From the NCBI GenBank assembly GCA_001724265.1, contig MEDY01000140.1:45619-65618 (forward strand): a stretch of 20,000 bases of DNA, read 5' to 3'. Shown here piece by piece: positions 1 through 20,000 of this stretch. The position numbers and the translations under genes are program-made. Numbering within the stretch: position 1 is the stretch's first letter; each line of letters opens with the position of its first letter. The DNA comes from Rhizaria sp. SCN 62-66 (Eukaryota). The notes under the pieces are model-generated. The model was given only the letters and a program-made list of their open reading frames with translations, did no database searches and was not told where the DNA came from.

Positions 1-1608
1 CAGCTGCTGCGCGAAGAGCTTTTGCGCGACGAGCGCCGTGTTGACCGCGGAGGCAGCGACTTCGCGGTGTGCGACGGCCGCGTAGCCCGTGCCGTAGGGC
101 TCCAGAGCGACGGCAACGGGCTGCGGCAGCGGGGCTGCCATCGCGCTGCTGCCGGGCTTGCCGCCCAGCAAGAGCGTGACCCTGGCGGCGGCGGGCAGGC
201 GCGCGGCCGCGACGCCGGCGAGCACCTCGGCGGGCAAAACGCGGCCCACGCAGCACGGACACACGAACGCGTCCGGGTCCCCGCCCGCGCGCGCGAGCAG
301 CTCGCTCATGGCGGCTTGGCTTTCGAACAGCGCGGCGGCTTCGTCCAGAGTGCGCACACCGTACTCGGCCCCCACGTCGACGTTGCCAGCGGCCGAGGCC
401 CGCGCCTTTGCGTCATCCGCGTCGGTATCAGCGCCAGCGCCAGCGCCAGCGGAAATGTCGGGCGGAGGCAGTTCCGCGGTGTAGCGGCGCACTGCGTCGC
501 GCGTGACGAGGCCGGCGCGCGCGCACACAGCCAGCGCGCGGAGGTAGAAGCGGCGGCGGTGCGCGGCGGCGCGGCGCGCGGTGGCCACGCCGGCGCGCGC
601 GAGACAGCGCGGGTGGTACTCGTGGCGGCACACTACGCACCACCACGCCCGCGACGACGACACGGACGGCGACGCGGCTGCGGTTGATGTGGACGCTGCG
701 CCCGCGTTAGCTGGCGCCAGAGCAGGGCCAGCAGCAGTAGCAGCAGCAACAGCCCCGTCCGTCATATCAGTTGCCGAGACTGTGTCCGTGTTGGTACTCG
801 CACGAGGCGCGACTATAGCGCACTCGCCGCCGCCGTTATCGCCGTCGCAGTCGTCGTCGTCGCTGATGCTGTCTGCGTCTGTGGCGACGCCGCAGAGCGC
901 GCAGGCGGCCTCGTCGTGCGGACACCGCGCGGCGGCAGCCGCAGCGGCCACAGCCTCTGGCGCCAGCGCAGTCAGAGTTACGGTCGGCGCAGCGACGCGG
1001 AGGCTGTGTGCGGTCCCGCCGTGTGCAACGGAGGTGCGGCTGTGTGTATGGCTGTGCGCAGCGTTGGCTTGGTGACTGGGCGCAGCATGTGCGTGGTGAC
1101 TGTGTGCTGCGGGGGTCGAGTTTGCGAGCTGGAGCCGCAGCGGGACAGCGGATGCGCTAGCCGAGGCGGCAGACGCTGCCGTGGCAGTCGCAGCCAAGGG
1201 AAATACTTGTGCTGGCGCCGATGGCGCCACCGTTGCTGCCGGCGCATGTGCTTGTGCCAGTGCAGGAGCTGAAGTTTGAGCTTGATCTTGTGTCGATGCG
1301 GGTGCAGTCGCAGCTTTGTCGGCAGTCTTGGTCCGGTTGCTGGTGCGACTGGGCCTGTCGTCGAGGCGGCTGGAAACAACTACGACGTCGCTGCCATCGC
1401 TCTCGCTCTCGCCGCTGCTGCTGCTGCTCAGACTGCTGCTGCTACTGACCTCGCCGCCGCTACTGCTGCTGTCAAGCGTTCTGCGCTTGGCCGGAGTCGC
1501 GGCCGCGGCTGGCTTCGTTGGGGCCGTCTTAGAGCTGTTTGACTTGGTCGCAGCGGCCTTGCTGATTACGGCTGTCCTACCGCCATCATCACCATCGTTG
1601 TCGTCGCC

Positions 1609-1645
<37 letters not shown>

Positions 1646-1716
1646 GACTCGAGCTTGCGGAGCACCTTCTGCGCAGGGGCAGACGCAACAGCAGCGCCTG
1701 TAGACGAGGATGATGA

Positions 1717-1756
<40 letters not shown>

Positions 1757-2583
1757 TAGGACGACGATGACGCAGTCAGCTGCAGCCGCAGCCCGGCGCC
1801 GGCTCCGGTGCCGCTGCCCAAAGGCGCGGGAGCGGGCCCAACCGAGCCGCGGGGCAGCGCCAGCGATACCACTCCAGACTTTGAGCTCGAGACGGAGCTC
1901 GCACTTGTTTTTGCAGTGCTGCCTCCAGTGGTCGAAGACGCAGCCACATTAAGCCGCAGATTCGCGCCCCCACTGTTGCTGTTGCTGCTCTTTACGCTGC
2001 TGCGCTGCGAGTTGCTGTTGCTATTGCCACCACGTCCGCGGCTGTCGTTGTGGTAGATGTACCCCGTCTCCGAGTCCGAGCTCGAGCTCTCAGCGGCCGC
2101 CGCGGACGAACGCAACGGGATCGGGATCGAAACAACGCCGCTGCTGCCGCGCGCGCCACTGCCACCGTGGCGCTGCTGCGAGTGCTGCGCGGGGGCGGCG
2201 CCCTTGTCGTGGCTGGTGCCACTGCTGCGGTTGCCACTGTGACGGTCACTGTGACTGTTCCTGTGGGCACTATGACTGTGACTATGCCCGTGACCGTGAC
2301 TATGACTGTGGCCGCCGTGGAGGCGCGATGCCCCCGCTGGGCCCGACACGGCCGCGGTAACCTGCGCAAGGCGGCTGGCAGCAGCGTCGCGCTGGTGGTA
2401 GCTGGCCGAGGCGTGGCGGCCGTCCGCCAGCGGGCGCGACACTGCCGCGGCGGCCGAGAGCAGCTGGCGAGTCGCGCGCACCCCCGGCGGCAGCAGCGCG
2501 GCCGCCGCGGCCTCAGACTCGGCCGCGGACGCCGTGGGCGCGGACGGGGTGCTGCCGCGCGTAGGGCGGTGGTGACCTGACAT
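1..2583 (-). CDS. Large low-complexity protein with a split PHD-type zinc finger; 3' end outside window; in-frame TAG at codon 276
   Basis: ATG at 2583. The ORF track stops at TAG 1756-1758, but the same frame stays open for 585 more codons to the window edge with the same codon style. It encodes CALC (892-903), WWCVVCRHEYHPRC (604-645) and FVCPCC (250-267), the C4HC3 ligand pattern of a PHD finger. Confidence 0.8.
1612..1756. repeat. Coding microsatellites (GCT)11 at 1612-1644 and (GAT)3(GAC)13 at 1709-1756, both encoding poly-Ser on the minus strand
   Basis: Directly visible trinucleotide runs. Confidence 0.95.
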
Positions 2584-2962
2584 CGGTCGGGCGAACGCGG
2601 AACGACGGAAGCCAAGGGACTGCGGACTGTCGAGGGTGAGATCGGCTTCTTTGTGCGGTCAAGAGCGGACTTCTTCTACAGCAAAAATCGAAGGCAAGAA
2701 CGAGTTTTTAGTGAGTATAATAAGAGCGCCCGGCAGAAATTTATCAATCAATTTAGTACAGCAGGTCACTGTGCAATTAACGATCAATACATGTACATAG
2801 CTCAGCCGCAAGATCCCGTGCCTGAGGGCGCGGACTGACCGACCGACCAGCCGATGTACTGCAGACCAGCCGCGGCGGCCGTGCCAAGCAAGCGAAGGTT
2901 CATGAAGCCACAGGTTTGTTGAGTTGACCTGTTTTTTTTTGCCGTCGTGCAAAGGAAAACGG

Positions 2963-3561
2963 ATGACCCGTGGTAACCAAGTACGTTTATCTTCATTCTT
3001 GCAAATTGATAGGCTCGCAACTGTCTGTTATTGCTGCTAATTTTGTGTCGAAAAACTTGCCATGATGACCAATGACGCCAGCAGCGTTGCTCACCCCCGT
3101 CTACCACGATTTCTCCCCACTTTCTTTCATCTCTCTAGCGTGATATTGACCGCAAGCGCGCCGAGGCTCGTGCCAAGGCCACTGCTGGTTCTACCAAGAA
3201 GACTTCGAAGGAGGAGTACGTCGTATCAGCATCAGCCACTTCTAGCCACCACCTGCTATTCAAGAACAAACCTATGCGTTGCCCCACCTAGATGTCTTTT
3301 CGTCATAAGATCAACAATGATTTGATATGGATGGCTATGTATTCTACGCGGATCGTGCGTTTTATCTGCGACGCGGTTGGTTATGCCGCTCTGTTTCCCA
3401 CAACCCTCTAACCATGCCTCGTCAGCGCTCACCCAGCTCCCTTCGCTTTTCTCTTGACTCGCCTTGTTGCCCACCATTGTAGCGATGCTGACCGTCTCCG
3501 CGCGAAGCAGGCCGCTGCCAACGCCCGCAAGGAGGCCGAGGCTGCCGCTGGCAAGAAGTAA
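2963..3561 (+). CDS. SERF: Small EDRK-rich factor (SERF / 4F5 family), 57 aa, 3 exons: 2963-2980, 3139-3215, 3483-3561
   Basis: The spliced product MTRGNQRDIDRKRAEARAKATAGSTKKTSKEDDADRLRAKQAAANARKEAEAAAGKK* has the diagnostic MTRGNQR N-terminus. Both introns are GTACGT...TAG and preserve frame; TAA stop. Missed by the ORF track. Confidence 0.93.
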
Positions 3562-4058
3562 ACGATCTTGTTTGAGCTCAACTATTGACTACATAACCAG
3601 ATTTCCACTTCCCTCCCCGTTGCTTCAGGACGCATACCGCTCCTGAATAACGTAACTGACAACGAAAAAAACATGTCATATGCCATCGTGACAAAAGAAT
3701 ACACACCGATTGCATACTTTTTTTGCCGTGCTCGTCTCGTTATATCTCGCTATCTTTGAAATTCATGACTTCGTATCCGTTTGTGGTGAATGGCGCGAAG
3801 TCTGGAAGCCAAGAAAGAACCCAATCTTTGTTTGATTCAGTTCGTCACTAGGCATCCGTCAAATCGCATAGCGCGCTGGTTTCATATCAACGATGTTGTT
3901 TATACTTATCACCATTTCATTGTCGTTTTAACTGTGTCTCTGTATCTGTCCTATTTCGTCCCCACAACCTCAGCCCTTAATGACCGTTTCTATTGTTGTC
4001 TCACCCTCGTTCAACCTCACTGCTCCCGCACTCCCCGCGCCTCACGCCGCTCCCCAGC

Positions 4059-4570
4059 ATGGCGAGCCAGGTGCAGTACAGCACGGCGTAGGCCTGGCTG
4101 AAGGCACACATTGGCGCGGTGCCTAACACCTCCACAGGCTGGTTCCGCGCGGGCGTGGGCTTCTACAACAAGCGCGAGTACGCGTTCTCCATCCAGTGCT
4201 TCGAGAAGGCCATCGCGCTCGACCCCAAGAACTACAACGCCTACCAAGTCATGAGCCGCGCCTGCATTGCAGTTAATCGTACGCTATCTTGCGCAGATCT
4301 GCTTCTCCTCTCCTGGTGTCACGAACAGTAGTCTGCTGCACGATATTCGCTCACTCACCCTTCTCTCTTCGTTATTTCCACTCACTTGTTTTGCTGTCTC
4401 TCCGCGCGACAGGCCGCGACCTGGCGATCATCGCGCTCAAAGAAAGTGTGAAGCTGAACAACCCCTCTGACTGGCATCTCTTGGTCGAGCTCACTGCCCA
4501 GGAGGCCGACCTCAAGGCCAAGGGCGACTCGGCCAACGCCGTGCATGTGCCGCAAGAGAACGACGCGTAA
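4059..4570 (+). CDS. Small tetratricopeptide-repeat (TPR) protein, ~125 aa, exons 4059-4278 and 4413-4570; in-frame TAG at codon 11
   Basis: Reads MASQVQYSTA*AWLKAHIGAVPNTSTGWFRAGVGFYNKREYAFSIQCFEKAIALDPKNYNAYQVMSRACIAVNR|RDLAIIALKESVKLNNPSDWHLLVEL...; the W..G..FY...Y..C.EKAI.LDP pattern is a typical TPR. Intron GTACGC...CAG; TAA stop. A tiny upstream exon (ATGACTTC near 3765, non-consensus donor) joined to the CAG at 4055-4057 is possible but unproven. Confidence 0.82.
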
Positions 4571-5114
4571 TTGCCGTCAAAGAGTTTCCGGCCCACACCT
4601 GACGACATCACAAGCAACGTCGCGCCTACTTCTAGAGACAGCGACGAGTAACCAGGCAGCAGTTGATGCGCAAACAAACAAGGTGACTGCAAATCACTAG
4701 AACTCGACGTGATGTGACAAATATTAACTGACTCGTGGCTCGTGACACAGCTGCAGCTGGGAGTCTGCTGTCCGTTCCACCCAGTAGCTCGCTTGGTCGG
4801 TTATATTGCTCAGTGCGCGTCACTGGCAGGCGTCACACACCGCGTGATGGGCATCGGGCCAGGAAGGATCTGATGTGCAAAAGCAATGAATGGCTATGTA
4901 CTGTATCACGATATAATGGCCCCAGTTAGTGTCAAGCAGCGGCTTAGATATGTGACCTTTAGCGGCAGATAGTTCGATTTATCACCAAAAATTCCTACAT
5001 TAGTACTTACAACTCATATAACTCAAATAACATTCAAAACTCTACAAATACAAAACAAGACTTCACTCCACCTGCCTAACCCCAACTTGGCGCAACATCA
5101 ATCAAACCCTCCCT

Positions 5115-5914
5115 TCACGCCGGCCCTAGACCGCCGCCGAGGCCGCCGTTGTGCTGCGGAGCGAGCGCGGCGCTGTTCGCGGCGTCGGAGATGGAGATGC
5201 GGGATGCGCCAGGGGCCAACGCGCCGGCGACGGCGTCGGCCACCGCGCGCGCCAGCGCCGCCACGGCCGCCGCAGAGTCGCGCGAGTTGCTGTGACCATG
5301 TGACAAGAAACAAGAGACAACGCCAGAGAACAAGAGGCAAAAGACGAGAGAGGTTGAATAAGATGTGCGAGTGAGTTCGTGTGAAAAACTCGAGTTGCGG
5401 TCGATGATCGTTGACAAATCAGTCGTGATACCATGCAAACAACAATGAAATCAGATGCAGTCCATTTTGTCTGAAATGGCATCAGAACTTCGTTCGATAC
5501 AAGAACGTACCAGACGACGACGATCGCGGCGACGACGACGGCGGCCATGGCAGTCACCACGAGACACGCGCACGCGCACGTGCGCCGCTGCACCGGACTC
5601 CACCGCGCCAGCGCAAGCCCCACGGCCGCGCCGGCCTCCGCCGCGGCCTCGCCCGCAGACAGCGTCGCATAGCCCCCATCATCAGCGCCAGCACGAGTGT
5701 GGTTAGAGCTTTTGACGCCTTTGTAGCGATAGTCGCTCACGCTGCTGCTGTTGCTGCTGCTGATGTAGCCCAGACTGCCGCTCTCACTGTCTCGCTCGCT
5801 GTGCCCGCGCTCACTGTGGTGGCCACCGTCGCTGTGGAGCTCGCCACGGTCACTCTGCCCACGGTCACTCTGCCCACGGTCACTGTGGCGACTGAAGCTG
5901 CTGTGGAGAGACAA

Positions 5915-5946
<32 letters not shown>

Positions 5947-6047
5947 GGGTGCTGAAGCCGTCGCTGTCGTCCTGATATCGCCTGCTCCCACAGCCTTGGC
6001 CGACATAGTTCTTGCTGGCAGTCTTGGCCGCACTCGCCACCGCGTCT

Positions 6048-6082
<35 letters not shown>

Positions 6083-7163
6083 GGAGCTGATGCTGATGTG
6101 GTCGTCGCCGAGCGACTGTGAGCGGCCAAGGCGGCTTGAGTTCACGCCGCCGATCGCCACATCACCGTTCCGCCCCCCGGCCCCGGCCCCGCTACCCTCC
6201 GCCGCAGACGGCAACGCACCGTCGCCGCAGCAGACGCAGCAAGCGCGGAGAGCGCGGAGAGCGCGGGCAAGAAGCAGGTACAGGGACAGCAGCACAGCGG
6301 TTACGGCAGCGCCCAGAGCGGCGAGGGCGGCCGCCGCGGCCGCGAGGCAGTGCGCAGTGCAGAAGAACACGGCGTCCAGACACGCGTCGCAGCATGACAT
6401 GGCGCAGGCGTCGCCGGAGGCCGAGTCTGAAGCCGAGGCGGAGAAGCGCGGGCCGTCGGGGCCAGGCATCGAGGACAGAAACGAGTTCCACGACGAGCTA
6501 TGTTAAGGCAGTATAAATACACGAATACAAAGCACTTTCAGAATATAAATATGATTTTATACATGGAATTACAGTTACATATGTAAAACTCAAATACTAT
6601 TACAGTGAGCCTTTGCTAAGATCGATTAATGTGCATAGATATCAAATTGTTTGCTTGTCGTACCCTTTGGCGGCGGCCTTGGCGAGGGCGCCGACGCCGA
6701 CGACTGTGGCGCCTGGGGGCGGCGCCAGCAGCTTGCGCCGGGCCTGGTCAAGCAGGCGGCGCTGCTGCTGCTGGCGTTGGTGCTGCTGCAGCGACTGCGC
6801 CTGCTGCTGCAACACGGTCGGGAGCAGCAACGAGCCGTCAGGCATCGAAGCGACACCTGCTGCTGCTGCTGCTGCTGTTGCTGCTGTTTGGAGTGCTGAG
6901 GACTTGTGTCGCGCTGCGTAGCTGCCGCCGTATGCCTCCACGTGCGTAGGTGCGGCGCGCAGCGGGTCGGTGGAACCTTGCACGCGCTGTGCAAAGGCGG
7001 GGAGTGCGGACGACGACGGGGGCTGCGGGGCGGTAGAGGAGGCAAAGGGGGCCTCGGATGAGGGCGGGGCCGGTCCCAGGAGCGGCTGGACCGAGCGGCC
7101 AGACGGGCTGAACTGCGACATGACGTAGTTCACACGCCCAATACCCTAGAAAATATAGCGCAT
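5115..7163 (-). CDS. Uncharacterised low-complexity protein with two Cys-flanked hydrophobic (likely transmembrane) segments; exons ~7163/7121-6664, 6497-5511, 5289-5115
   Basis: Three ORF-track pieces join in frame through introns 6663-6498 (GTACGA...TAG) and 5510-5290 (GTACGT...CAG). Hydrophobic stretches are CLAAAAAALAALGAAVTAVLLSLYLLLA and CACACLVVTAMAAVVVAAIVVV; TGA stop at 5115-5117. The start is uncertain: ATG 7121, or ATG 7163 if TAG 7146-7148 is sense. Confidence 0.68.
5844..5884. repeat. 15-bp coding tandem repeat (CCACGGTCACTCTGC x ~2.7) encoding SDRGQ units; nearby (GCC)10 at 5915-5944 and (TTG)11 at 6051-6083
   Basis: Directly visible; degenerate SDGGH/SERGH/SERDS copies follow in the protein. 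Confidence 0.9.
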
Positions 7164-7402
7164 AATGTTGGGAAGGAATGTATCATGAGATAATCGTGCA
7201 GATAGGGGTCAGACAGGAGCAGGCTTGCAGGAGCGAAATGGGAGGCAACGGATGTGATTGATTTGAAAAAGTGTCTGGTCGTTGCATCTGTCCGTCAACA
7301 GATACACCCGTTTTACCCCGAAGACACCACATAGGTTTGTCTATAATCCCTATTTTATACTCGCTAGAAGCGCCTTTATCACACAAATCCACTTCAAACA
7401 AA

Positions 7403-9013
7403 ATGTTGTCGAGCCTCGCGGCCTACGGCAGCAGCGACAGCGAGGCCAGCGACGCCGAGACCGCGCCCACCAAGCACTCACCTAAGGCCTCTGATGTCGC
7501 GGTCGTCTCCGCCGCGTCTAGGCTGACATCTCTGTTTGCGGACGACGCTGACGACGCCGACAGTGCTCCCGCCGGTCCGGTCGCCGCAACCGCAACGGCT
7601 CCCGTCCATCCAGCCACAAACGCAACCACAAACTTGGGCGCTAAGCCCGCAACTGCGGCCACAGTCGCCAAGCCTGCCAGCAGCACCGGCGGCATTAACT
7701 GGGGCGTTCTTTCCGCGCCCTCAGCTGCCGCCACAGCCGCGACCACTGGCGCTGGCATGACCTCTACTAGCTCTGGCTCCTCTAGCTCTAGCTCTGGCTC
7801 TGGCTCTGGCTCTGCTGCTGCGGAGGCTGACGGCGGCGACGGCGGCGCGGACATTGCCCCCAGCATCAAGCGCCCCCGCGTCATCACCTCGGCGGCCGCA
7901 GCCCCGCTCACAGTCACTCTCGGCGGCCCCTCCGCCTCAGCCACATCCGCATCAGCAGCCGCAACCGCTGCCACCGGCTCAGCAACAGCAGCGACAGGCA
8001 GCAGTGGCAGCGCGATGTTGCTGCAACGCTCGCGCGCACTGATGGCGGGCTTTTCTTCCACAGCCGGTGCCGCCGCCGCCGGCCCCGCGCCCGCGCCTGC
8101 TGCTGCTGCGGCGGCGGTGACAGCAGCATCGACCGACTCGAGCTCGAGCTCTGCTGCAGAGACACCTGCGCCTGCTCCTGGAGCTGCGGACGCTGCTCCT
8201 GCGCTGAACAGCACCGCCGCGGCGCTGGCGATGATGCGCCGGTACGCGGCCGCGAGCGCCACGGCCGACGCTGAGGCCGCGGCCGCGGTCGCCGCGGCGG
8301 CGCAGGCGGACGCCGCCGCAGCCAAGGCGGCTACAGAGGCGGCAGCGATCGCAATCTGGGCCGCCACTGAGACCAAGGCCAAGGCCGACGCAGAAGCCAA
8401 GGCCAAGGCTGCGGCAGCTGTTGTCACCGCTGAGACTGACGCTGGTGCCGCTGTTGATGTTGCAGCCAGCACCGGCAGCGACACGCAATCGAGCCCTGCC
8501 GCGCCCGCCTCAACTGCGAACTCCACCTCGACTGCAAACTCCGCCTTAGCTGTTGCGACTGCCAAGGCGCCGGCCCCCGGCAGTCTGGCCGCGTTGGCGG
8601 CTCGCGACCGCACTTTGCGCCGCGAGCTCCTCGCCGCCGGCCTCCTCAACACACAGAGCGACGGCACCGGCGACACCTGTGACGACTACGAAGATGCTGA
8701 CTCAGCCAAGCCATCCCGCCGCGGCGCGACCGTGGTGAGCGTGTCGCAGGCCTCGCTGACCGCGCTCTCGCGCGAGGAGCGGCTGCGCGCCGAGGTCGAG
8801 GCGCAGGTCCGCGCGCAGCACGCTGCACAGACCCGCGCCGTGACCGGCATGACGCGCTGGGACGCCGCGCTCGGTCGCGAGGTCACTGTCGAGTCAGCTA
8901 CAGGCGGCGGGGCCGGCGATAGGGCCGCCAAGAGCCGGATCGGCGTGCTCGCGGAGCAGGCAATCAAGACGGAGCTCGCAATCGCGCTCAAGAAGGCCGT
9001 GGGGCGTCGATGA
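7403..9013 (+). CDS. Ala/Ser-rich protein resembling PRCC (spliceosome-associated), 536 aa, single exon
   Basis: First ATG is 7403, at the AT-to-GC transition. The N-terminus MLSSLAAYGSSDSE matches the 'SLVAY.SSDE' start of PRCC and some other splicing proteins. The C-terminal AAKSRIGVLAEQAIKTELAI resembles the PRCC C-terminal 'KHQI.YL..QA...ELEL' motif (recalled similarity). TGA stop. The CDS is secure; the family call is tentative. Confidence 0.6.
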   Translation: MLSSLAAYGSSDSEASDAETAPTKHSPKASDVAVVSAASRLTSLFADDADDADSAPAGPVAATATAPVHPATNATTNLGAKPATAATVAKPASSTGGINWGVLSAPSAAATAATTGAGMTSTSSGSSSSSSGSGSGSAAAEADGGDGGADIAPSIKRPRVITSAAAAPLTVTLGGPSASATSASAAATAATGSATAATGSSGSAMLLQRSRALMAGFSSTAGAAAAGPAPAPAAAAAAVTAASTDSSSSSAAETPAPAPGAADAAPALNSTAAALAMMRRYAAASATADAEAAAAVAAAAQADAAAAKAATEAAAIAIWAATETKAKADAEAKAKAAAAVVTAETDAGAAVDVAASTGSDTQSSPAAPASTANSTSTANSALAVATAKAPAPGSLAALAARDRTLRRELLAAGLLNTQSDGTGDTCDDYEDADSAKPSRRGATVVSVSQASLTALSREERLRAEVEAQVRAQHAAQTRAVTGMTRWDAALGREVTVESATGGGAGDRAAKSRIGVLAEQAIKTELAIALKKAVGRR

Positions 9014-9380
9014 CCTGTTCAAAGTACGAATGGTAAGCTTATTGCTCTATGTTTGGTCCGTTCTTGACTCCTGGCCCAGAGGCATACAGTTAAGATTTGT
9101 TGCAATTGTGCAAGAAACATAACATACACAGTGAATTTCTAACTACGTACGCTTATTGATCATAAGCTCATGAAACGAACTCGCTATATGTGTGGTGTCG
9201 TTTACAGGTTATGACACCGCATGGCGCATGAAATGTAATCAACATCTGTACGACGTAAAATCAGTTGTATTGTGTACAAATTAATAACTTGACATATTTC
9301 GACACTCATACATTCATTGAATCAAACCTCTCTCGCAATCACTTCGCAACGGCTGACTTAAGCTGAGTAATGCTAACTGC

Positions 9381-10196
9381 TTAGACGAGGGAGACGTTGT
9401 TGGTCCAGAACTCGACGGACTTGTTGTAGGCGTCGCGGTCGAGCGGGATGCCGGAGCCGCCGTGCTCGGTGCCCAGTGCGTTGCGGAGCATCGTGATAGG
9501 CTGCATGGGCGTCTCGAAGCCGTCGTTCTGGGCCTTGACGGAGACGATGCCCCACTCGGCCGTGTCGGTGCTCTCGGTGCCCATCGACGCGTTCTCGATC
9601 TTGATCTGCTCGCGCGAGTAGAGGATCAGGTCCAGGTAACCCGCGGGCGCCACGGAGGGCAGTGAGGCAAGCGGGACAAAGCGGTTGAGCACGGGGAGCT
9701 CCTTGTCAGTGCGCGCGGCGTAAGACGTCTTGACCAGGGGCTCGACCTCAGGGGTGAGAGCAACGTAGCACGGCTTCGTCTGGGTGAAGTTGGGGACGAA
9801 GATGTGCTTGCAGAAGGGCGCGTAGCCGTCGACGAGTACCTCGGCACCCTTGGCCTGCTGTGCGGCAACGTACTCAAGGCACTTGGCCAGGAAGGCGTCC
9901 TTGTCGTAGTCAATGGTGCCAGACGAGGCGTCGCCGGAGCCGGCGCCGAACTGGCGCATGCAGAAGGCGTCGATGCACAGGAAAGCGGGCTTATCGGAAG
10001 ACATCGCAGAGCGAGGTGTCGAGCTAAGCATGCGTCCAACGTGCAGTTGAGATTTCGGCGTCAGATGCGATGATGGCGATGGGAAACGGGGGTACAGAGA
10101 AACAGCAAGGCTTTGGTGTGAGCTGAAGCGCGCTATCGTCACAAGCAAGGGGGTGGAGGCCACACGCGAGCTCTCTTTCAGCCGCGACAGCAGCAT
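9381..10196 (-). CDS. DUF3228-family protein; conserved part starts near ATG 10004, with a possible 64-aa N-terminal extension from ATG 10196
   Basis: Motifs LVDGYAPFCKHIFVPNFT, YAARTDKELPVLNRF, LDLILYSREQI and MQPITMLRNALG..GGSGIPLDRDAY..SV.FW are recognisable as DUF3228. Strong C/G-ending codon bias; TAA stop. Confidence 0.85.
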   Translation of the reverse strand: MLLSRLKESSRVASTPLLVTIARFSSHQSLAVSLYPRFPSPSSHLTPKSQLHVGRMLSSTPRSAMSSDKPAFLCIDAFCMRQFGAGSGDASSGTIDYDKDAFLAKCLEYVAAQQAKGAEVLVDGYAPFCKHIFVPNFTQTKPCYVALTPEVEPLVKTSYAARTDKELPVLNRFVPLASLPSVAPAGYLDLILYSREQIKIENASMGTESTDTAEWGIVSVKAQNDGFETPMQPITMLRNALGTEHGGSGIPLDRDAYNKSVEFWTNNVSLV

Positions 10197-10899
10197 ACCA
10201 GCCGTGTTCTCAGTACCAATGTTGGGACGATCACAGACAAGTGTGCTCAGAGACAGTAGCTACTGTGCGGCGCTGGATCCAGAGAGGGCGAGATGCGTTA
10301 AGAGGCCAAGCACGTGATTTGCAGATCGGTCGAAACAGAGATATAGATTAAGTGCAACACCAGATTTAAAAACAAAATATAATTTCTGAGGCAGTTTCAT
10401 TCTGATCAAATGACACCGTCGAGTTTCAACAGATTTTTCCTCATCATCTATGCCTCGCAAGATCGACTGCGAATCTTCTGCTGGTCGCTTGCCAGTCCCC
10501 ACACTCGACCACAAACGCTTATCAATCATTTGGATAAATGACATTCGTGCATGCTTATACTTGCCTTGTGGCGAAAGAATCTACTCTGAACAATAAAATA
10601 TGGCTTACTTTGCTGTATGGCTTATTTTCTTGTCCCTCGCGAAGCGTTCGGGAAGAAATTGCGCATTAAAAGGCCGACAAGTACTCACCAGTCACTGGTC
10701 ACCATACGACTTCGAGCAAAAATGTGTAACCGGTTTTGCAAAAATGTATTAAAAGATTGGCCTGTTCGTAATCAAGCATCACTCGAACAGAAACAACTCT
10801 GGCCCTCGTTGTCGTATCAATCTGATTCCCAGAAATCTTTCACACACAATATCCAAGACGTTGCTCGCACAGCGACGCGCACTCACGCAGGTGTTCATT

Positions 10900-13056
10900 T
10901 CATGTCGAAGGACGCTTGACCTGGAAAGCCACAGAACCATCACCCTCGCTGCCGTCCAGCTGATCCTGCTCCTGTAGCGGCTCATTTTGCTCGCGCTCGT
11001 CCTAATCATTCTCATCATCCGCATCCGCGCTCGCAGCCACGTCAGCCGCAGCCCCCGGCGCGGCCCTCTTGACACCGCCCTTAGAGCACGCCGCGGCCGC
11101 CGCGACAAGCACCTTCTGCAGCGCCTCTTTGCGCGCAACGGCGGCGTCAACTGCGCCGCGGAGCTCGTCGCACTCGCGCAGCTCCTGGCGCGCGCGCTCG
11201 TGCATGCCCGTGAGCAGCGCAAACAGCTGCTGCGCGCCGCCCATGACGCGCAGGAAGCCCTCGAGCTTGGAGCCTGACTCGACGACCGACTGCACAAAGG
11301 CCTTGTTGGGCAGCTGTCGGGCGTCAGAGGCGAAGTTGAGCGTCGTCACCGTCTCCTGAGCGTTGCTGGGCGAGGGCGAGATGTTGGCGATGAGGCAGAG
11401 CTTGCTGTTGCCGCCGATGAGCCCGCGCAGCAGCAGTGTAAGCTTCGAGTTGCGGTACGACTTGTACTGTTGGTTCTGCACCAGTGAGCGCAGCATCGAA
11501 CCCAGCTCAGACAGAGACTTGTTGATGTTCGACGCCTCATTGAGCTGCGAGCCGCCCGACGCGCCCGTGGTCTTGGCGCACTCGGAGCCGGCCAGATCCA
11601 CAAGCGTGAGCTTCGACGTCGTCGCCACAGTGCCCAGGTCCGTCACGCGGCGCGCAGTGATAGTCACGGTAAAAAACGAGTGCGAGCGCGATGACTTGGC
11701 GTTCATGAGCGTCGCGCCGCTGTGCCGGTTCGCGTTGCCCGCGCGCAAGTGCGCTAGTGCGTCCTCGGCGGACGTGATCACGTGCTCCACCAAGTTCACC
11801 GGCTCGCCGTTCATGATGCGCACTTCGGTGTTCTCGACAGGGCCGGGGCCCGTGGACACGGCGGGCGGCGCCAGCAGGTCGAACACCTTGATGTTGTAGA
11901 TCTCCAGGAATGAGCAACGGCACTCGACGATTGCGCCCTCGCTCGCCTGCTGCGCGCGGATCTTACTGAACAGGTCGGCCAGTACACGCGGGATCAGACC
12001 GCGCTGGTCGCTGCTGTCATAAAAGCCAGACTGTGCGTACGCCTGCGCCTGCGCCTGTGCGCTGGGGGCGTCGAGCGTCGGGCCCATCATCGTGAACGTC
12101 TTGCCCGAGCCCGTCTGCCCGTAGACAAGAATGGTCCCGTTGAAGCCGGCGAGACAGGAGTCGACGACTGGACGGCCCGCGTGCTCGTACACAGCGCCCT
12201 GCGTCGTGGCCTGGTCGAGCACAGAGTCGAAGTTGAACTGCCGCGGCGGCGCGCCGGGCTGCTGCACGACGACGGAGCCGTGGCCGTCAAACTTGAGAAA
12301 GCCGTCGCCCTCGGCCGCCGAGCCCAGCGCGCGCGTCTCGTTCATGTTGGCCGGGCGCACGCGCACGAGCACGGAGACGCTGTTGTTGGCCAGCGCGGCC
12401 GCGGCGGCGGCGGCAGAGGCGGACACCGCGGCGCTGCTGTTGTTCGCGGAGGCGGCGCTGGATAACAGCGCGGGTGCGGAGGCAACGAGGGACTGCGCGC
12501 CCAGGGCCGCGGCGGAGACTGGGAGAGGCGCGGACGCAGAGGTCGGCGTCGGAGTGCCAGCCGCAGCGGCCGCCGCGGCGGCCGGGTCGCTGGCAGACAT
12601 GGTGCCGGAGCTGGTGCTGTTCAGCGAAAGCGAAACGTGCGGGTTCGAGCCGCTACGCGCGCGCATGCCGGGAATCAGGCCGGACGTCTTGCCGCCCTGT
12701 GATGCGGAAGCGGAGGCAGAGGCAGCGGATGCACCAACAGCGGCGGCGGACGGGGCGGAGGACATGGCAGTGCCGGCGACGGAGCTGGGAGCAGTGCTAG
12801 GACGCATGTTCTCGGGCGCCATAACGGCGGCAAGCACAGCGGACTCACGCTCGGTCAAAGAACGCGCAGGGGCGCGAGGAGACTTGAGCAAGTTGTTGAA
12901 CGGGTTGCCGCCAGAGGGAGCGCCCGAAGCAGCGGCCGCGGCCGCGAGGGCGAGCGCCGCACCTGATGGACGCGCGCTATAAGCGTTATTGGAAGACGTG
13001 GAGGATCCCACGGCGCCAAGAATCGAGTCCTTGCGCTGCTTCGCCGAGTGTTGCAT
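10900..13056 (-). CDS. Kinesin motor protein (closest in appearance to kinesin-12/KIF15), ~718 aa if TAG 11002-11004 is read through to TGA 10900-10902
   Basis: Contains VLVRVRP, P-loop YGQTGSGKTFTM, RGLIPR, SFLEIYN, switch I NAKSSRSH, switch II LVDLAGSE, NINKSLSELG and YRNSKLT.LL. There is a ~225-aa low-complexity N-terminus and a short C-terminal coil. The subfamily is an inference from GKTFTMMGP and CSFLEIYN. Confidence 0.92.
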
Positions 13057-13295
13057 CCGGAACAACAGACACCAGAGAGAACGAGGTCACAAACAACTCG
13101 CAATGGAGCGGCACGAGGTGGTGGGGACTGTGCAGAAGGAAACATGTTTCGTTTAGAAATCGATTAAAAGAAGATATGAGAAATAGTGAATAGTTAGATA
13201 ATTGATCGTGAAAATAGAATATATGGCGTTCATTAAGTTTCACTGAATGACCATAGAGCAGTGTGTGAAATAAAATGACTCGTGTCTGGGCGAGA

Positions 13296-13350
13296 TAGCC
13301 GTTGGCGTTTCGAGGCTGACAATCGGATCCAACGGCTAGATCAACGGCGG
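13296..13350. promoter_or_regulatory. Cluster of three MSA-like (YAACGG, 3R-Myb-type) elements in a bidirectional promoter
   Basis: TAGCCGTTGG (13296-13305) is the exact reverse complement of CCAACGGCTA (13329-13338); a third copy TCAACGGCGG lies at 13341-13350. The cluster is midway between the divergent ATGs at 13056 and 13541. Confidence 0.55.
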
Positions 13351-13540: not shown

Positions 13541-16500
13541 ATGTCCGAAGACTCTGCGGACACCACGACATCTATTCTTGACGATCTTGTACGTTTTATA
13601 ATCGTGCTTTGCGTAATGTTGCTTTATCCTCGCATCTTGTTCTTACCTGGCATATCCTTCTTTCCTGCCTGAACCCGGCTCCAACTGACACGACATCACC
13701 TTGACTTCTGACCACTCTCTCATACCATTTGCTTCTCAACATAGAACGGCTCGTTCGCCGAGCGCCACGGTGACCTTCTAGCGGATGTTGCTGACGTGAC
13801 CGTTGGCGACGCTGGCGAGTGGTCCAACACCATTCCCGAAGACGCCGAGGAGGCCGAGGACGATAACGAGAACGTTGCCCCGCTCCCCAGCGCTCCCCCC
13901 ACCGCCCGCGCCGCCGCGACCGCTGCCGCCGCCGCGCGCACCAGCAAGACCGCCGTTGTTGCCGCATCTACTGGCGTGAAGCGCTCGCTGACTGCGCGCC
14001 CTGGGCTCTCCGTTGCGGGCACGTCCCGCGCCAGCCTCGCGGCGGGCTCTGTGCCCTCGGCCTCCGTCGCGGGCTCCAGCCGCCTCTCGGTGGCCCCCAG
14101 TGCGGGCGTGCCGCGCTGCGCGACGTCGCGCCTTACGCTGAGCAGCTCCGCGTCGGTCTCGGCCGCGGCAGCGCTGTCTGCGGGCGACCAGGGCAAGCTG
14201 CGCGACCTGGAGCGCAAGATGAAGGAGCTGAACCAGCAGCTCAACGACAAGGCCCGCGAGGCCGCGCAGGCCGCCGCCGCGCGCGACGCCGCCGAGCGCG
14301 CGGCCAAGCTCGCCAAGGACGAGAGCGAGAAGCTGCGCGCGCGCGTGGCCGAGTCGCGCGAGGAGGTCCGACTGGCGGGCGCCGAGAAGACGCGGCTCAG
14401 CAAGGAGCTCGCCGGGCTCCAGAGCCGCCTCACGGGTGCAAGCAAGGACGCGGACAAGATCGCCGCGCTCGAGGCAACGAAGAAGGAGATTGCTGCGCAG
14501 CACCAGGAGCAGAGCAAGAAGGCCGACGCCGCGGCCAAGGCGCTCAAAGACGCCGGCCGCCGCGCCGAGGAACTGGAGCGCGAGATGCAGCAGCAGGCGC
14601 GCGCGCACGAGGACGCCACGGCCGCGCTCGAAGCCAAGGTTGCCGCCGCTGAAGCCGCGACGGCCGCGCAGAAGGACGCCGCGTTCAAGGTGGCCGAGCA
14701 GATGCGTATGCTCGAGGGCCGGCTCTCCGACGCGCAGTTGCAGTCGCTGCGTGACGCACAGGGCCAAGAACACGAGGTCTCCAAGGTGCGCGAGCTTGTC
14801 GACGCCGAGCGCGACGCCAAGAAAGAGGTCCAGACCGCGCTGGAGAAGGCGCAGCGCGCGCTGGCGCAGTCTGAGGCCGAGCGCGAGCGCCTCATCGGGC
14901 AGGTCGCGACCGCCAACGTGCAGACGGGCAACGCGACCGCGGACCTGGAGGCCGCGCGCGCCGAGAATGCTGCTGCCAAGGCGCGCCGGCTCGAGATGAC
15001 CGAGAAGCTTATCGCGCTCGAGGCCGAGCAGGCCGCGCGCGCTCAGGAGGCAGCCGCGCTGACCGAGCAGCTCGCCGCGGCCGTGGCCGAGACTGAGACT
15101 CTGACTGCCGCCCGCGATGAGCTGCTCAGCGAGCGCGACGCCGCGCAGCAGGCCGCCGAGGAGCTCGCCGCCGCCGTCGCGGCCACGCAAGCCGAGCTCG
15201 AGGTAGCGCGCGGCGATGCGGCGGGCCAGTCGCAGCGCGCGGCCGCCGCCGAGGAGCAGAGCACCGAGCTGCAGGCCACGCTTACCGCGACCGAGTCCGC
15301 GCTTGCCAACGCCGTGGCGCAGATGGGCGCGCTGGGCACCGACGAGAAGCGGCTCCAGACCGAGCTCGCGGCCGCGCGCAAGCGCCAGCAGGACCTCGAG
15401 GCGCTCGTAGCTACTGCTGACGGCCGCGTTGACGAGCTCGAGGAGGAGCTGGCCGGCGCTAAGGCCGAGATCGCGCGTGTCGGCGAGGAGCTCGCGGGCA
15501 AGAGCGAGGAGCTGGTCAAGTACGAGGAGATGTGGACCGCTTGCGAAAAGAATCTCAATGAGACCAAGGTCGCGCTTGCCTCCTCTGAGGACGCGTGCTC
15601 CACTCTCAAGGATCAGCTTGCTTCCGCGGAGGCTGCTGCCGAGACCGCCGCCGCCGAGCACGCCGCCGCTGCTGCCACCGCGTCCGAGAAGCTCGTCGCC
15701 TCCGAGGCCGCGCACGTCGAGACGACCGCCGCGCTTGCCGCCGCCACCGCCCGCGGTGACTCGCTCGCCGCCGAGCTCGCCACCGAGCAGAGCGCGCACA
15801 GCGAGACGCGCACCGAGCTTGCCAGCACCGAAGCCGCGCGCGCCGCTGCTGCAGCCGAGTGCGAGTCGCTTCGCGGCTCCCTCGACGGCACCGGCGCGAA
15901 CCTGAGCGAGACCGCCGCCGCGCTGGCCGCTGCTTCCGCGCAAGCCGCCGCTTTCGGCGAGGACAAGACCGCGCTCGAGGCCACCGTTGCCGAGCTGCGC
16001 GCCGCACTAGCTGCGCTTCAGACCGCCAAGGCCGAGGGCGACGCCGCTGCTGATGCCGCCGCCGCTGCCGCGCGCGAGGCTGCCAACGCAGCCGCTAAGG
16101 CTGCCGCAGCTGCTGCTGAGGCCGCCGCCGACGAGATCGAGCGCCGTGACGCCGCCATTGCTGAGGCCCAGGCCGAGCGCGACGTCGCCCAGGCCGCTCT
16201 CGAGGACTCCGCTGCGCAGCTGACCGCTGCCAAGGCCGCCAGCGACGCACTGCGCGCTGACATCGCCGCCCTGCGCGAGAAGAACGCGGGTAGCGAGGTC
16301 GAACGCGGCGCCGCTGCTCTGCGCGCCGACGAGTTCGAGTCCGCGCTCACTGAGGCCAAGGCCGTGAGTGAGCGCATCGAACAGTCGCTGGGCAAGTCGC
16401 AGGCGGCGCTTGCGGCGTCCGAGGCCGCGGTCAAGGCGCTCCGCAGCGACAAGGCCCAAGTTGAGGACGAGCTCGCGACCGCGCAGGCCGCGCTGTCCAG

Positions 16501-18442
16501 CGCTGAGGGCTCACTGGCGACTGTGACCGGCGAGCTCAAGGCTGCGCGCATCGCGATCGAGGAGGCCAACGTGGCCAAGGACGAGACCGCGACCGAGCTG
16601 GCCACGGCCCGCGGCGAGCTTGCCGCGCGCGAGAGCGAGCTGGCGAAGCTGCAGGTAATCAAGGCGCGTCTGGAGGAGAACTATGAGCAGGCCAAGTCCG
16701 CTATCAGCGAGGCCGACGCCGAGTGCGGCGATCTGGGCCGCGAGCTTGACGAGACCAAGGCCGCGCTCGCCGACGCGCTCGCCGACGCCGCGGCCAACGC
16801 GCGCGAGACTGAGTCGGTGCGCCGCGCGCTGGAGCTGTCGCGCAAGACGACCGAGGAGACGCTGCACGAGCTCGAGTCGGTGCGCCAGCTGCGCTCGTCA
16901 ACTGATTCGCGCATGTGCGAGACGGAGACCAAACTGACTGCCGCGCTGGCCCAGGCCGAGGAGCTCTCCGCCAAGCTCGTTGTCACGACCAGCCAGAATA
17001 AGGCGCTGGGCACGGAGCTGGAGGAGCTCCGCCGCAGCAAGCACGCGCAGGAGGAGAAGCTGCTTTGCACGCAGGACGAGGTCGCTGTGCTGCAGTCTAA
17101 GCTCGACTCTGCCACGCGCGCTGATGCCGCCGCGCGCGCGCAGCTCGCCGAGACGTCCGCCGCGCTTACCAGCACCGCAGCGTCTCTTGAGACGGCCGAG
17201 GCGGCGCTCGCGCAGTCGCAGGATGCCGCCGTGACGGCCACGTCCCGCGCCGAGCTCGCCGAGGAGCGCGTCCAGGAGCTCCAGCAGCTCCAGGAGGGCT
17301 CCGCGTCCGATTCGCGCCAGCTCAAGACGGAGCTGCTCGAGGCCAACCGGCGCATCGAGACGCTGCGCGCGCGCGAGCGCGAGCTGAGTCAGTGCGAGGA
17401 GAAGCAGCGCGAGCGTGCGACGGCGCAGGAGCTGCGCGCGGGCAATGCCGAGGAGGCGTTGCTCGCGGCTGAGCGCGCGCGTTCCGAGCTCGAGCTGGCT
17501 CTTGCGACCGCCAAGGACGAGCTTGCCAACAGCACCGACGCCGTGAGCCGCGGCGACAAGAAGCTCACGAAGCGCAACGAGGCGTACCAGACGCTTAAGG
17601 GCGAGCTAGACGAGGTGCAGAAGCGGCTCCGCGACGCCGAGGGCCGCGAGCGCGAAGGCGCCAAGGCCAGCGAGGCGCTCGCGCGCCGTCTGGAGCACTT
17701 CGAGTGCGAGCACGCCAACGTGTCGCAGCAGCTCGCGCAGGTGCAGCAGGCGCTGGCCGAGGCCAAGTCCGTGCGCTCGCAGATCGAGATGGCGCACCGC
17801 GCGGCGTCGACCTCGCTCGAGGAGTACAACACCGCGCTCGCGGAGGCCAACGCCAACACCGAGGCCGCGGCTGCCGACGCCACCAAGCAGCGCGAGGCCC
17901 GTCGCGCGGCGTGCGCCGAGGTCGCTGTGCTCAAGCGCCGCGAGCTTGATCTCCGCGCTGAGGTCGAGGGCCTCCAGGAGCAGATCAAGCAGAAGGACGT
18001 GCGCATCAAGACGCTTACGTCGGTGCAGATCTCTCTGCGCCCTGCACCCGCGTCCTCGACGGCGGCCGTCTCTGCTGCCGCGCCCGCCGCAGCCACCGCT
18101 CCTGTCGCCGCCAGTGCGGAGCCTGTCGCCGCGAGCGTGACCAAGGTCGCCTCAGTCTCTGCTGCCGCTCCTGCCGCGGACGCCGGCACCGACCTCCCCG
18201 CCGCCGTCACCGCCGCGTCGCTGCGTACGTCCACGCGCGCGCGCGGTGGCATTCTCTCCGCGCTTGGCAGTAGCAACACGCGCCGCGCCGCTGCGGCTGC
18301 GCCCGAGGGCGGTGAGTTTGAGAAGCCCGCCGCCGCGCCCGCCGCTGGCACGGCGCGCCGCTCAACGCGCGCCGCCGCCGCGCCCGTCGCCGACGCCGAA
18401 AACGATGACTTCCTGATGAAGATGAACAGCTACAGCAAGTAA
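13541..18442 (+). CDS. Very long Ala/Glu-rich coiled-coil protein (~1581 aa), exons 13541-13588 and 13745-18442
   Basis: ATG 13541 gives MSEDSADTTTSILDDL, then a phase-0 intron GTACGT...CATAG (13589-13744) joins in frame to the 1548-aa ORF. About 1250 aa show continuous heptad character between disordered basic Ser/Ala-rich termini; TAA stop. Confidence 0.88.
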
Positions 18443-18904
18443 GTTGCTTGTGTGAAATTAGATGAAGGTATGAATGTTTCAGTGAGTGCAAGTGTTATGT
18501 GTGATATAATGAAGTGTAATAAGTGGACGGTCTTAACAAGCGTCTCGTGGAGAGGATCCACAAGCGCAAAGAGCGTCTAACATCAATGATGATAAGAAAA
18601 CCCGCAATCATGGGCGTATAATGGCGGCGAATTAATAGCTGCCGTTCCAACCGGTAGCCCTGACGTGATGTACGTGGAGAGGTTTGTGAAAAACGCAAAA
18701 ACGCGCCTGGAAGGGGCAGTTTGAAATAGTTATATAACTTTGCTAAACATCCGCCAAATAAAGCAAATTTTTGATATCATGTATGAAACTCTTTTTTTAA
18801 TTCTTTTCATAATTATAATTGCATAATTGCGCTGGAGTATCTTCCTACGAAGACGCGTGGTCTCACCCCCTCCTCAACAATACTTTACGAATTCCTTCGC
18901 GCCG

Positions 18905-20000
18905 ATGGCACCTCAAACCAACGCGCGCCGCCGCGGCAGGCGCAGCACGCGTAGCAAGGACAGTGATGTTTCTGGCCGTCGCGCAAAAGCCGTGCTGACG
19001 TTTGCTCTTATCATGAACGTGATCACCTTCCTCCTGATGACCGAGACCTTCATCCTCGCCAACGTCGCCAAGCACTTCAAGCTTTCCGCCACGTCGGCTT
19101 ACCGTGCTGTCCGTTCGGCGACTCTTCTTTCCAACAAGGTTATCTCGAAGTCAGACTTCTATTACGGGCAGCTGCCTGAGCAGACATGTGAAGACAGAGA
19201 GACTGTGCCTTCAAGTGACGAGTGACCCTGAGCAGCAAAGAAACCAAGCTGGCTTTAAGGGTCAGGTGAGCTCGACATACGTCAACCAATCCTGCATCTT
19301 ATTGGCAGTTTCAACGACTGTTCGTGGACCTCCCCTCACTTAGATTGCTTGTCTCGTTGTTTCTTCAAGTCTCTCTGCCTTGTGGATTTCTGTTCTAACC
19401 AGTGTCACGTTGATAACACTTATCAGACTGGGGAGTCAGTTTGCTCATGTAATCATAGGCTTTGTCCACACTCTGTTTGAAGCCGGACACGATGTTGCAA
19501 CCTGTGATCAGCCGCATAGCATGCAGTGTCACTTTGATACGCAGGTTGTTAGCCAACCACCTGGTCAACGAAGACCTTGAACTTGTCGTTAAAGGTAAGG
19601 TCAAGGGGCTGTAGCTCCGAGGTCATACCGGACGGGATGAAGATGTACAAGATATCGCGCGACTCAAGAACTGGTCAAGAATAAGGACGGTGTTTGTCGC
19701 AGTTAAACCAGATGGGTTGATCCTGTACTGCACAAGAGGGTCAACCCATCTGGTTTAATTGCGACGAACACCGTCCTTATTCTTGACCAGTTCTTGAGTC
19801 GCGATATCTCGTACGTCTTCATCCCGTCCGGTATGACCTCTGAGCTACAGCCCCTTGGCCGCACATTTAACGACATTCTAAAGGTCTTCGTTAACTAGGT
19901 TGTTGGACCAGGTGCATCCACAAGGGGGTCAACAACTTCCCTGTGTCTGCTCAGGCAGCAAGCGTTGAGGCTAACAACCTGCGTATCAAAGTGACACTGC
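18905..20000 (+). mobile_element. Decayed, rearranged pogo/Tigger-type (Tc1/mariner superfamily, DDE_1) DNA transposon; extends beyond the window
   Basis: ORF 18905-19225 resembles a CENP-B N-terminal HTH (RRAKAVLTFALIMNVI...LANVAKHFKLSATSAYRAVR). 19743-19895 reads NTVLILDQF...YVFIPSGMTSELQPLGRTFN, and the inverted copy reads YIFIPSGMTSELQPLDLTFNDKFK, the pogo 'P..T..LQPLD...N..FK' motif. Internal deletion and frameshifts are present; no TIR was identified. Confidence 0.78.
19523..20000. repeat. Long inverted repeat: arms 19559-19720 and 19741-19900, plus 19523-19554 and 19969-20000; spacer of 20 nt or less
   Basis: Manual alignment shows roughly 90% identity over ~160 bp with one 2-nt indel. 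A ~65-nt extra segment follows in the right arm, then a perfect 32-bp match reaches the window edge. Confidence 0.95.

Follow-up and report, generated by a model that had tools for sequence, protein, structure and literature searches.

A possible reassignment of UAG to glutamate, with UAA and UGA kept as stops, in an uncultured GC-rich protist from wastewater reactors

Changes to the nuclear genetic code are rare, and the stretch of contig MEDY01000140.1 considered here (20,000 nucleotides, positions 45,619 to 65,618 of the contig; hereafter the window) raises the question of whether it records one. Three of its eight modelled genes, encoding a small tetratricopeptide repeat (TPR) protein, a low-complexity protein rich in serine, alanine and histidine, and a kinesin, each carry a single in-frame TAG, at 4089, 1756 and 11002, respectively. 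An earlier reading made from the letters alone (the sequence-only reading) had taken UAG for a sense codon, probably glutamine (Gln), with UAA and UGA remaining stops. In our assessment it is probable that UAG is a rare sense codon here and that UAA and UGA terminate; this part of the claim gains its support from the TPR gene, where the TAG falls on a conserved glutamate (Glu) and its DNA is confirmed in two other studies, while the kinesin TAG is ambiguous and that at 1756 unverified. Provided that UAG is a sense codon at all, a single alignment column makes Glu its meaning with a likelihood of somewhat over half, and makes Glu more likely than Gln. The proposal as a whole, UAG read as Glu beside UAA and UGA stops in an uncultured, GC-rich and probably cercozoan protist that has been present for a decade in wastewater reactors, is put forward as tentative.

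The TPR gene opens with an ATG at 4059, continues for ten codons to the TAG and then enters its TPR repeat; the next in-frame ATG (4248-4250) falls behind the Pfam TPR match, which occupies residues 16-47 of the stretch after the TAG. A word-based protein search with this sequence returned four proteins, among them the window's own open reading frame (ORF) from behind the TAG (P0122). The nearest relative, P0121, is 90% identical over the whole query and has the same N-terminus as one open frame, MASQAQYSTAEAWLKARIG, reading MASQAQYSTA-E-AWLK with Glu at the position of the window's TAG. A profile search covering 1.84 billion cluster representatives supplied further relatives: 34 short proteins (64-205 amino acids; 29 with one matched stretch and five with two) were chosen from 150 listed matches, long multi-repeat TPR proteins being left out, and were aligned with three proteins from the word-based search and with exon 1 of the window gene. 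The column under the TAG in these 37 relatives holds Glu in 25, histidine, aspartate, Gln and serine (Ser) in two each, proline in one and a gap in three; that is, Glu occupies 25 of the 34 relatives having a residue there, and leucine (Leu) none. All six invariant columns of the alignment are retained in the window protein, and 35 residues encoded by its exon 2 align to relative P0252 at 74% identity. The Glu column and the conserved motif around it thus indicate that the N-terminus belongs to the TPR protein and that the TAG replaces a conserved Glu codon. The sequence-only reading had seen none of the three sites at a conserved position, which does not hold for this one.

Window DNA recurs in contigs assembled from bioreactor, wastewater and activated-sludge runs of several studies dated 2015-2025, and these provide a check on the letters themselves. 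The TAG at 4089 stands unchanged in a contig of run X3 that matches 3204-5480 with no difference, and in one of run X4 (3716-5073) whose one difference lies at 4302, in the intron; a second X3 contig, 8472-13303, carries the TAG at 11002, again with no difference. Both TAGs are unchanged in contigs of two other studies (2017 and 2025), beside a possible source run of 2015. The read comparison masked 1584-1773 as repeat, and the check by independent assemblies covers 4089 and 11002. Run X6, a cDNA library that may also contain DNA, yielded a contig that begins exactly at 4413, the first base of TPR exon 2, with 47 further letters outside the fit.

The TPR protein belongs to a widespread eukaryotic family of about 120-130 residues, apparently uncharacterised, with the motifs GWFRAGVGFYNK and NPSDWQLLVELT; named members come from Hondaea fermentalgiana (under the label 'Tetratricopeptide repeat protein 27') and Rozella allomycis. 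A search of genome contigs with the TPR alignment gave just two bacterial TPR loci, irrelevant here.

The gene with the TAG at 1756 is long and of low complexity. One frame holds open stretches of 300 and 585 codons linked by this single TAG, and in first-order Markov simulations of the region five of 2000 runs produced an ORF of 585 codons or more, and none of 2000 a one-stop span of at least 886 codons. Two copies of an LRLxL motif precede the TAG and one follows it; histidine-rich repeats lie on both sides in the same frame, and a cluster of cysteine and histidine residues is found near the C-terminal part. The sequence-only reading had called this a PHD protein and the alanine-rich ORF PRCC-like, and Pfam finds neither domain in those ORFs at E <= 0.01, where its only matches in the window are DUF3228, the kinesin motor and TPR.

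Could these genes obey the standard code after all? The kinesin would then simply end at its TAG, the TPR gene would be a young pseudogene or null allele created by a GAG>TAG change, and the TAG in the serine run would have come from a nonsense variant or from misassembly of the repeat. A single base change turns GAG into TAG, and with the codon usage of the window TAG is the outcome of 76% of the possible single-base nonsense changes; the kinesin extension behind the TAG amounts to 33 codons without alignable homology, the TAG at 1756 is unverified in independent assemblies, and, since rare variants are lost in contigs, a minor allele with the gene intact is possible. Against this, the standard code requires two independent knock-outs, each by a single lesion, among eight neighbouring genes that show no other lesion in 4640 codons. 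The TPR gene lacks the accumulated lesions of a pseudogene, although a very young one is possible: the TAG is its single internal stop, frameshifts are absent, the intron keeps its signals, and the protein keeps every invariant family residue. Assemblies from three studies, dated from 2015 to 2025, all show the TAG. Nor is the one-stop span of 886 codons, never reached in the simulations, readily accommodated. We regard the standard code as an unlikely explanation.

At the kinesin gene the sense reading is ambiguous. Read-through gains 33 codons before the TGA, and since it adds no more than these the TAG is possibly a plain stop. The GC content of the extension is 0.60 (0.79, 0.36 and 0.64 at first, second and third codon positions), compared with 0.36-0.56 in the 99 bases after six true stops, and in a global alignment the tail of an ortholog, P0002 (62% identical), finishes at the same place as the read-through form. 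A contig of the cDNA run X6 spans the TAG unchanged over 10923-11201. It is 380 letters long; 279 letters fit this interval, and beyond 11201, still within the kinesin ORF, the following 101 depart from the window. The overhang could reflect a chimera, sequence variation or a joint missing from the models. Metagenome contigs searched with the kinesin gave 80 loci, all of them kinesins of other organisms at 30-41% identity, and nothing was found in genome contigs searched with the kinesin alignment or in a search of viral contigs.

A codon so placed invites the thought that UAG has two meanings, acting as a stop in some contexts, for instance near true 3' ends, and being decoded in others through competition of a suppressor tRNA with the release factor eRF1 or through leaky termination. 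The rarity of in-frame TAG would suit a costly or partly decoded codon, and for the kinesin, with its TAG 33 codons from the next stop, either product is plausible. Yet no gene of the window needs TAG as a terminator (none of seven), and with a TAG as early as codon 11 in a gene of 126 codons, or at codon 276 in one of more than 861, most of the product would be wasted unless decoding were efficient. The codons that follow (TCG, GCC and GAC) share no context, as the sequence-only reading had seen. Programmed read-through under the standard code was rejected on the positions of these two TAGs and the lack of a shared motif; of the three sites only the kinesin has a fitting geometry. A dual meaning of UAG is, in our estimate, rather improbable. 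That the TAGs are edited or spliced out of the RNA as micro-introns, or are artefacts shared between assemblies, is very improbable: no RNA contig is shown over 4089 or 1756 and a 21-nucleotide (nt) GT..AG stretch at 4071-4091 could formally be excised in frame, but this candidate begins with GTGCAG, unlike the modelled introns (134-267 nt, all with GTACG), and its removal would delete conserved residues that relatives encode continuously, while independent assemblies agree at two TAG sites and the X6 contig covers 11002 unchanged.

Stop-codon counts point the same way as the TPR gene and weigh less. The 4640 modelled codons contain three in-frame TAGs (about 0.65 per 1000 codons, in three of eight genes), no TAA, no TGA and no frameshift, and the seven complete genes end in TAA (four) or TGA (three, counting the kinesin as read through). 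The sequence-only reading had the positions of the TAGs, the codons behind them and the gene ends right, and had argued that internal stops are exclusively TAG and that no gene ends in TAG. Exclusivity is weak evidence because of the 76% share of TAG among possible nonsense changes, under which three of three random nonsense mutations would be TAG with a probability of 0.44, and seven gene ends, none of them TAG (one of seven if the kinesin is not read through), are few to judge from. What carries the case is therefore the interruption by TAG of genes that are intact and conserved, and not the exclusivity of TAG.

Several further points weigh against UAG as a sense codon, or against Glu as its meaning. 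Only one of the three TAG sites can be aligned to relatives, the other two lying in low-complexity sequence, which leaves one column as the main basis for UAG as sense and for the choice of amino acid; and GAG>TAG at the TPR Glu is just what a plain nonsense mutation is expected to look like. The TAG at 1756 lies in a repeat and is unverified in independent assemblies, and its TCG context would suit Ser better than Glu. The kinesin TAG may be an ordinary stop, and BLASTP of the kinesin tails showed no similarity. Among the contigs of the polyA RNA run X7, none covers the bin 4003-4669, and no RNA contig across 4089 was shown; neither ARAGORN nor Rfam (0 matches) found a tRNA in the window, which has no eRF1 gene either.

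On the assumption that UAG is sense, all three contexts would tolerate Glu (STA-E-AWLK in the TPR protein, DDEND-E-DERE in the kinesin and SSSS-E-SSSS in the serine run); the acidic surroundings of the kinesin TAG fit it, and Glu also interrupts other serine runs of the low-complexity protein. Gln, which the sequence-only reading had preferred, is not favoured by the readable column (Glu 25 versus Gln 2). What is established for other reassignments suggests how a change of this kind, which we infer for this organism from sequence, may have come about. The organism would possess a tRNA whose anticodon is CUA, the probable ancestor being tRNA-Glu(CUC) with position 36 of the anticodon changed, together with an eRF1 that no longer recognises UAG and still recognises UAA and UGA; a substitution such as GAG>TAG would then be silent, and new TAGs would appear through single-base changes of this sort.

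The host is a GC-rich eukaryote, with exons of about 62-73% GC set in spacers and introns of about 30-51%. The gene models comprise eight genes with six introns; their GC content at third codon positions is 0.81, and in the first model set GAG was counted 275 times, AAG 155, CAG 143 and TCG 113 times. Placement was approached through the DUF3228 protein, whose relatives at 81, 76, 68 and 67% identity are all uncultured and whose named matches reach only about 50-55%. A maximum-likelihood tree of 213 columns and 35 rows (the window and 34 rows hand-picked from 120 listed, namely the nearest uncultured and the named ones) unites the window with seven uncultured rows in a clade with support 99/93; its sister group is formed by Paulinella chromatophora with P. 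micropora (97/94), and Mataza sp. comes next (96/80). Although drawn from a single gene with hand-picked rows, this hints that the organism belongs in Cercozoa. The seven uncultured metagenome proteins beside the window suggest that environmental data contain an entire clade of uncultured relatives. The best named kinesin matches point in no consistent taxonomic direction; an oomycete affinity, considered on account of a match in Achlya, was discarded, the Achlya protein having two motor domains that inflate its score. An ESM Atlas search with DUF3228 gave no usable lead.

Table 1. Modelled genes, in-frame TAGs and introns of the window (positions count from its first letter)
Feature	Position	Strand	Details
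Low-complexity Ser/Ala/His-rich protein gene ('PHD protein' of the sequence-only reading)	1..2583	-	ATG 2583; leaves the window at base 1; 861 codons inside
In-frame TAG no. 1	1756-1758	-	Codon 276; head of (TCG)n serine run: TCA TCG TCG TCC TAG TCG TCG
SERF gene	2963..3561	+	Exons 2963-2980, 3139-3215, 3483-3561; TAA 3559-3561
Small TPR protein gene	4059..4570	+	Exon 1 4059-4278, intron 4279-4412 (GTACGC..CAG), exon 2 4413-4570; 126 codons; TAA 4568-4570
In-frame TAG no. 2	4089-4091	+	Codon 11 of the TPR gene; GCG TAG GCC; motif sAE-WL--R-G
Membrane/low-complexity protein gene	5115..7121	-	Exons 7121-6664, 6497-5511, 5289-5115; 540 codons; TGA 5115-5117
Ala-rich ORF ('PRCC-like' of the sequence-only reading)	7403..9013	+	537 codons; ends TGA; no Pfam family
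DUF3228 ('flagellar associated protein') gene	9381..10031	-	217 codons; ends TAA; Pfam E 4e-71
Kinesin gene	10900..13056	-	KIF15/kinesin-12-like by best named matches; 684 codons to TAG; 719 including stop if read through to TGA 10900-10902
In-frame TAG no. 3 (ambiguous)	11002-11004	-	GAT TAG GAC; acidic tail ...DADDEND-TAG-DEREQNE...
Coiled-coil protein gene	13541..18442	+	Exon 1 13541-13588, intron 13589-13744, exon 2 13745-18442; 1582 codons; ends TAA
Introns	2981-3138, 3216-3482, 4279-4412, 5290-5510, 6498-6663, 13589-13744		Lengths 134-267 nt

The introns of the window share an unusually uniform donor, all six modelled introns starting with GTACG followed by T, C or A, and four of these introns close with TAG. 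A TAG met at the start of an exon is for this reason not to be taken for an in-frame codon; two such triplets (3136-3138 and 13742-13744) were set aside as intron acceptors. The SERF protein of the three-exon model begins MTRGNQRDIDRK, and the joint from 3215 to 3483 (a GT..AG intron) is spliced in one contig each of the cDNA run X6 and the polyA RNA run X7. Other X7 contigs are unspliced, one of them passing through the intron at 5290-5510 (5119-5718) and another starting within SERF intron 1 (3095-3215), from which it follows that this library contains pre-mRNA or DNA too. In the contig over 5119-5718, moreover, 12 bases are missing at 5626, where a repeat varies in length.

The membrane protein gene is modelled from GTACG donors, AG acceptors, continuity of frame and the drop of GC in its introns; no spliced RNA for it was seen in the run contigs. 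The ORFs at 6642-7145 and 5126-6502 look like separate genes, and a 166-nt intron joins them in frame. The predicted protein contains homopolymer runs of 11 asparagines and 10 glycines and a predicted hydrophobic stretch. A TAG at 5126-5128, which closes the long ORF, offered itself as the end of this gene; splicing of the 221-nt intron 5290-5510 puts it out of frame, and the gene ends in TGA, as the sequence-only reading had it. The coiled-coil gene contains no in-frame TAG. Beyond it, the last part of the window (18677-20000) shows a summed contig depth many-fold above its neighbours in X3 and X4, many variant letters and joints between opposite strands. Within it lies a large nested palindrome (19523-20000), with outer arms 19523-19554/19969-20000 that are 100% complementary, arms 19553-19659/19800-19906 at 87% and inner arms 19651-19724/19737-19810 at 92%. 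In appearance the region is a fold-back element or a repeat in many copies; alternatively, the assembly may have folded back on itself where a contig ends.

If UAG does stand for Glu here, several consequences follow. Codes in which UAG and UAA part ways are rarer still than other nuclear code changes, the cases named in two reports being a rhizarian, Iotanema, Scotinosphaera, Protocruzia, some phyllopharyngeans and one oligohymenophorean (PMC11687900; PMC5304391). The window would add a new assignment, UAG meaning Glu beside a UAA stop in the GC-rich genome of an organism that is not a ciliate; should the placement hold as well, it would be a second and independent UAG reassignment in Rhizaria, to an amino acid other than the Leu of Rhizaria sp. 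exLh. It would provide a further natural test of how eRF1 separates UAG from UAA, and would bear on GC pressure as a driver of stop-codon capture, for which rare TAGs derived from abundant GAG would be a fitting outcome. In the database the kinesin (P0001), whose exact protein is recorded on six contigs of up to 65,228 bases, stops at the TAG, and the sole form of the TPR protein entered there begins behind its TAG. Under such a code, standard gene callers would truncate the proteins of this organism, with the result that eukaryotic bins from wastewater metagenomes would be mis-annotated.

No NCBI code table is known to assign UAG to Glu with UAA as a stop, and full-text literature searches found no report of this combination. 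The nearest parallels each share one side of it. UAG is decoupled from UAA, as in the window, in Iotanema spirale, where it specifies Gln beside a UAA stop, as a minority of about 8% among the codons for that amino acid (PMC5304391; PMC11687900), and in Protocruzia tuzeti and some phyllopharyngean ciliates, where it again specifies Gln with UAA as stop, phyllopharyngeans also using it for Leu (McGowan et al., 2024, PMC11687900). The residue in the window appears instead to be Glu, and its GC-rich, intron-bearing genes are unlike those of ciliates.

Glu is the meaning of both UAA and UAG (UAR) in peritrich ciliates and in Blastocrithidia nonstop, UAA having a dual role in the latter (PMC11687900; PMC12153298). 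What these codes share with the one proposed for the window is the use of a UAR stop codon for Glu; the window differs in that only TAG occurs in frame, while TAA is absent from the 4640 codons and ends four of seven genes. Oligohymenophorea sp. PL0344 has UAG as Glu and a different meaning, lysine, for UAA (PMC11687900), so that UAA is a sense codon there and a terminator here. A reassignment of UAG alone outside the ciliates is also described for the green alga Scotinosphaera, with UAG as Ser and UAA as stop (PMC11687900). The TAG at 1756, in its serine run, would fit that code, whereas the TPR column has Ser in two of 34 relatives against Glu in 25; the DUF3228 tree does not group the window with green algae, but had no green algal row.

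A rhizarian parallel is Rhizaria sp. exLh of the Sainouroidea, an inhabitant of an insect, in which 384 UAG codons in 71 genes are read as Leu and genes end in UAA (56) or UGA (15) (Panek et al., 2017, PMC5304391). UAG is frequent there and falls on conserved Leu positions, whereas the window, from an organism of wastewater and bioreactors, has its three in 4640 codons and a readable column dominated by Glu and free of Leu. What the two would have in common is the reassignment of UAG alone, with UAA and UGA as stops, in an organism that is not a ciliate, and possibly their supergroup too, if the placement of the window organism in Cercozoa from a single gene is right.

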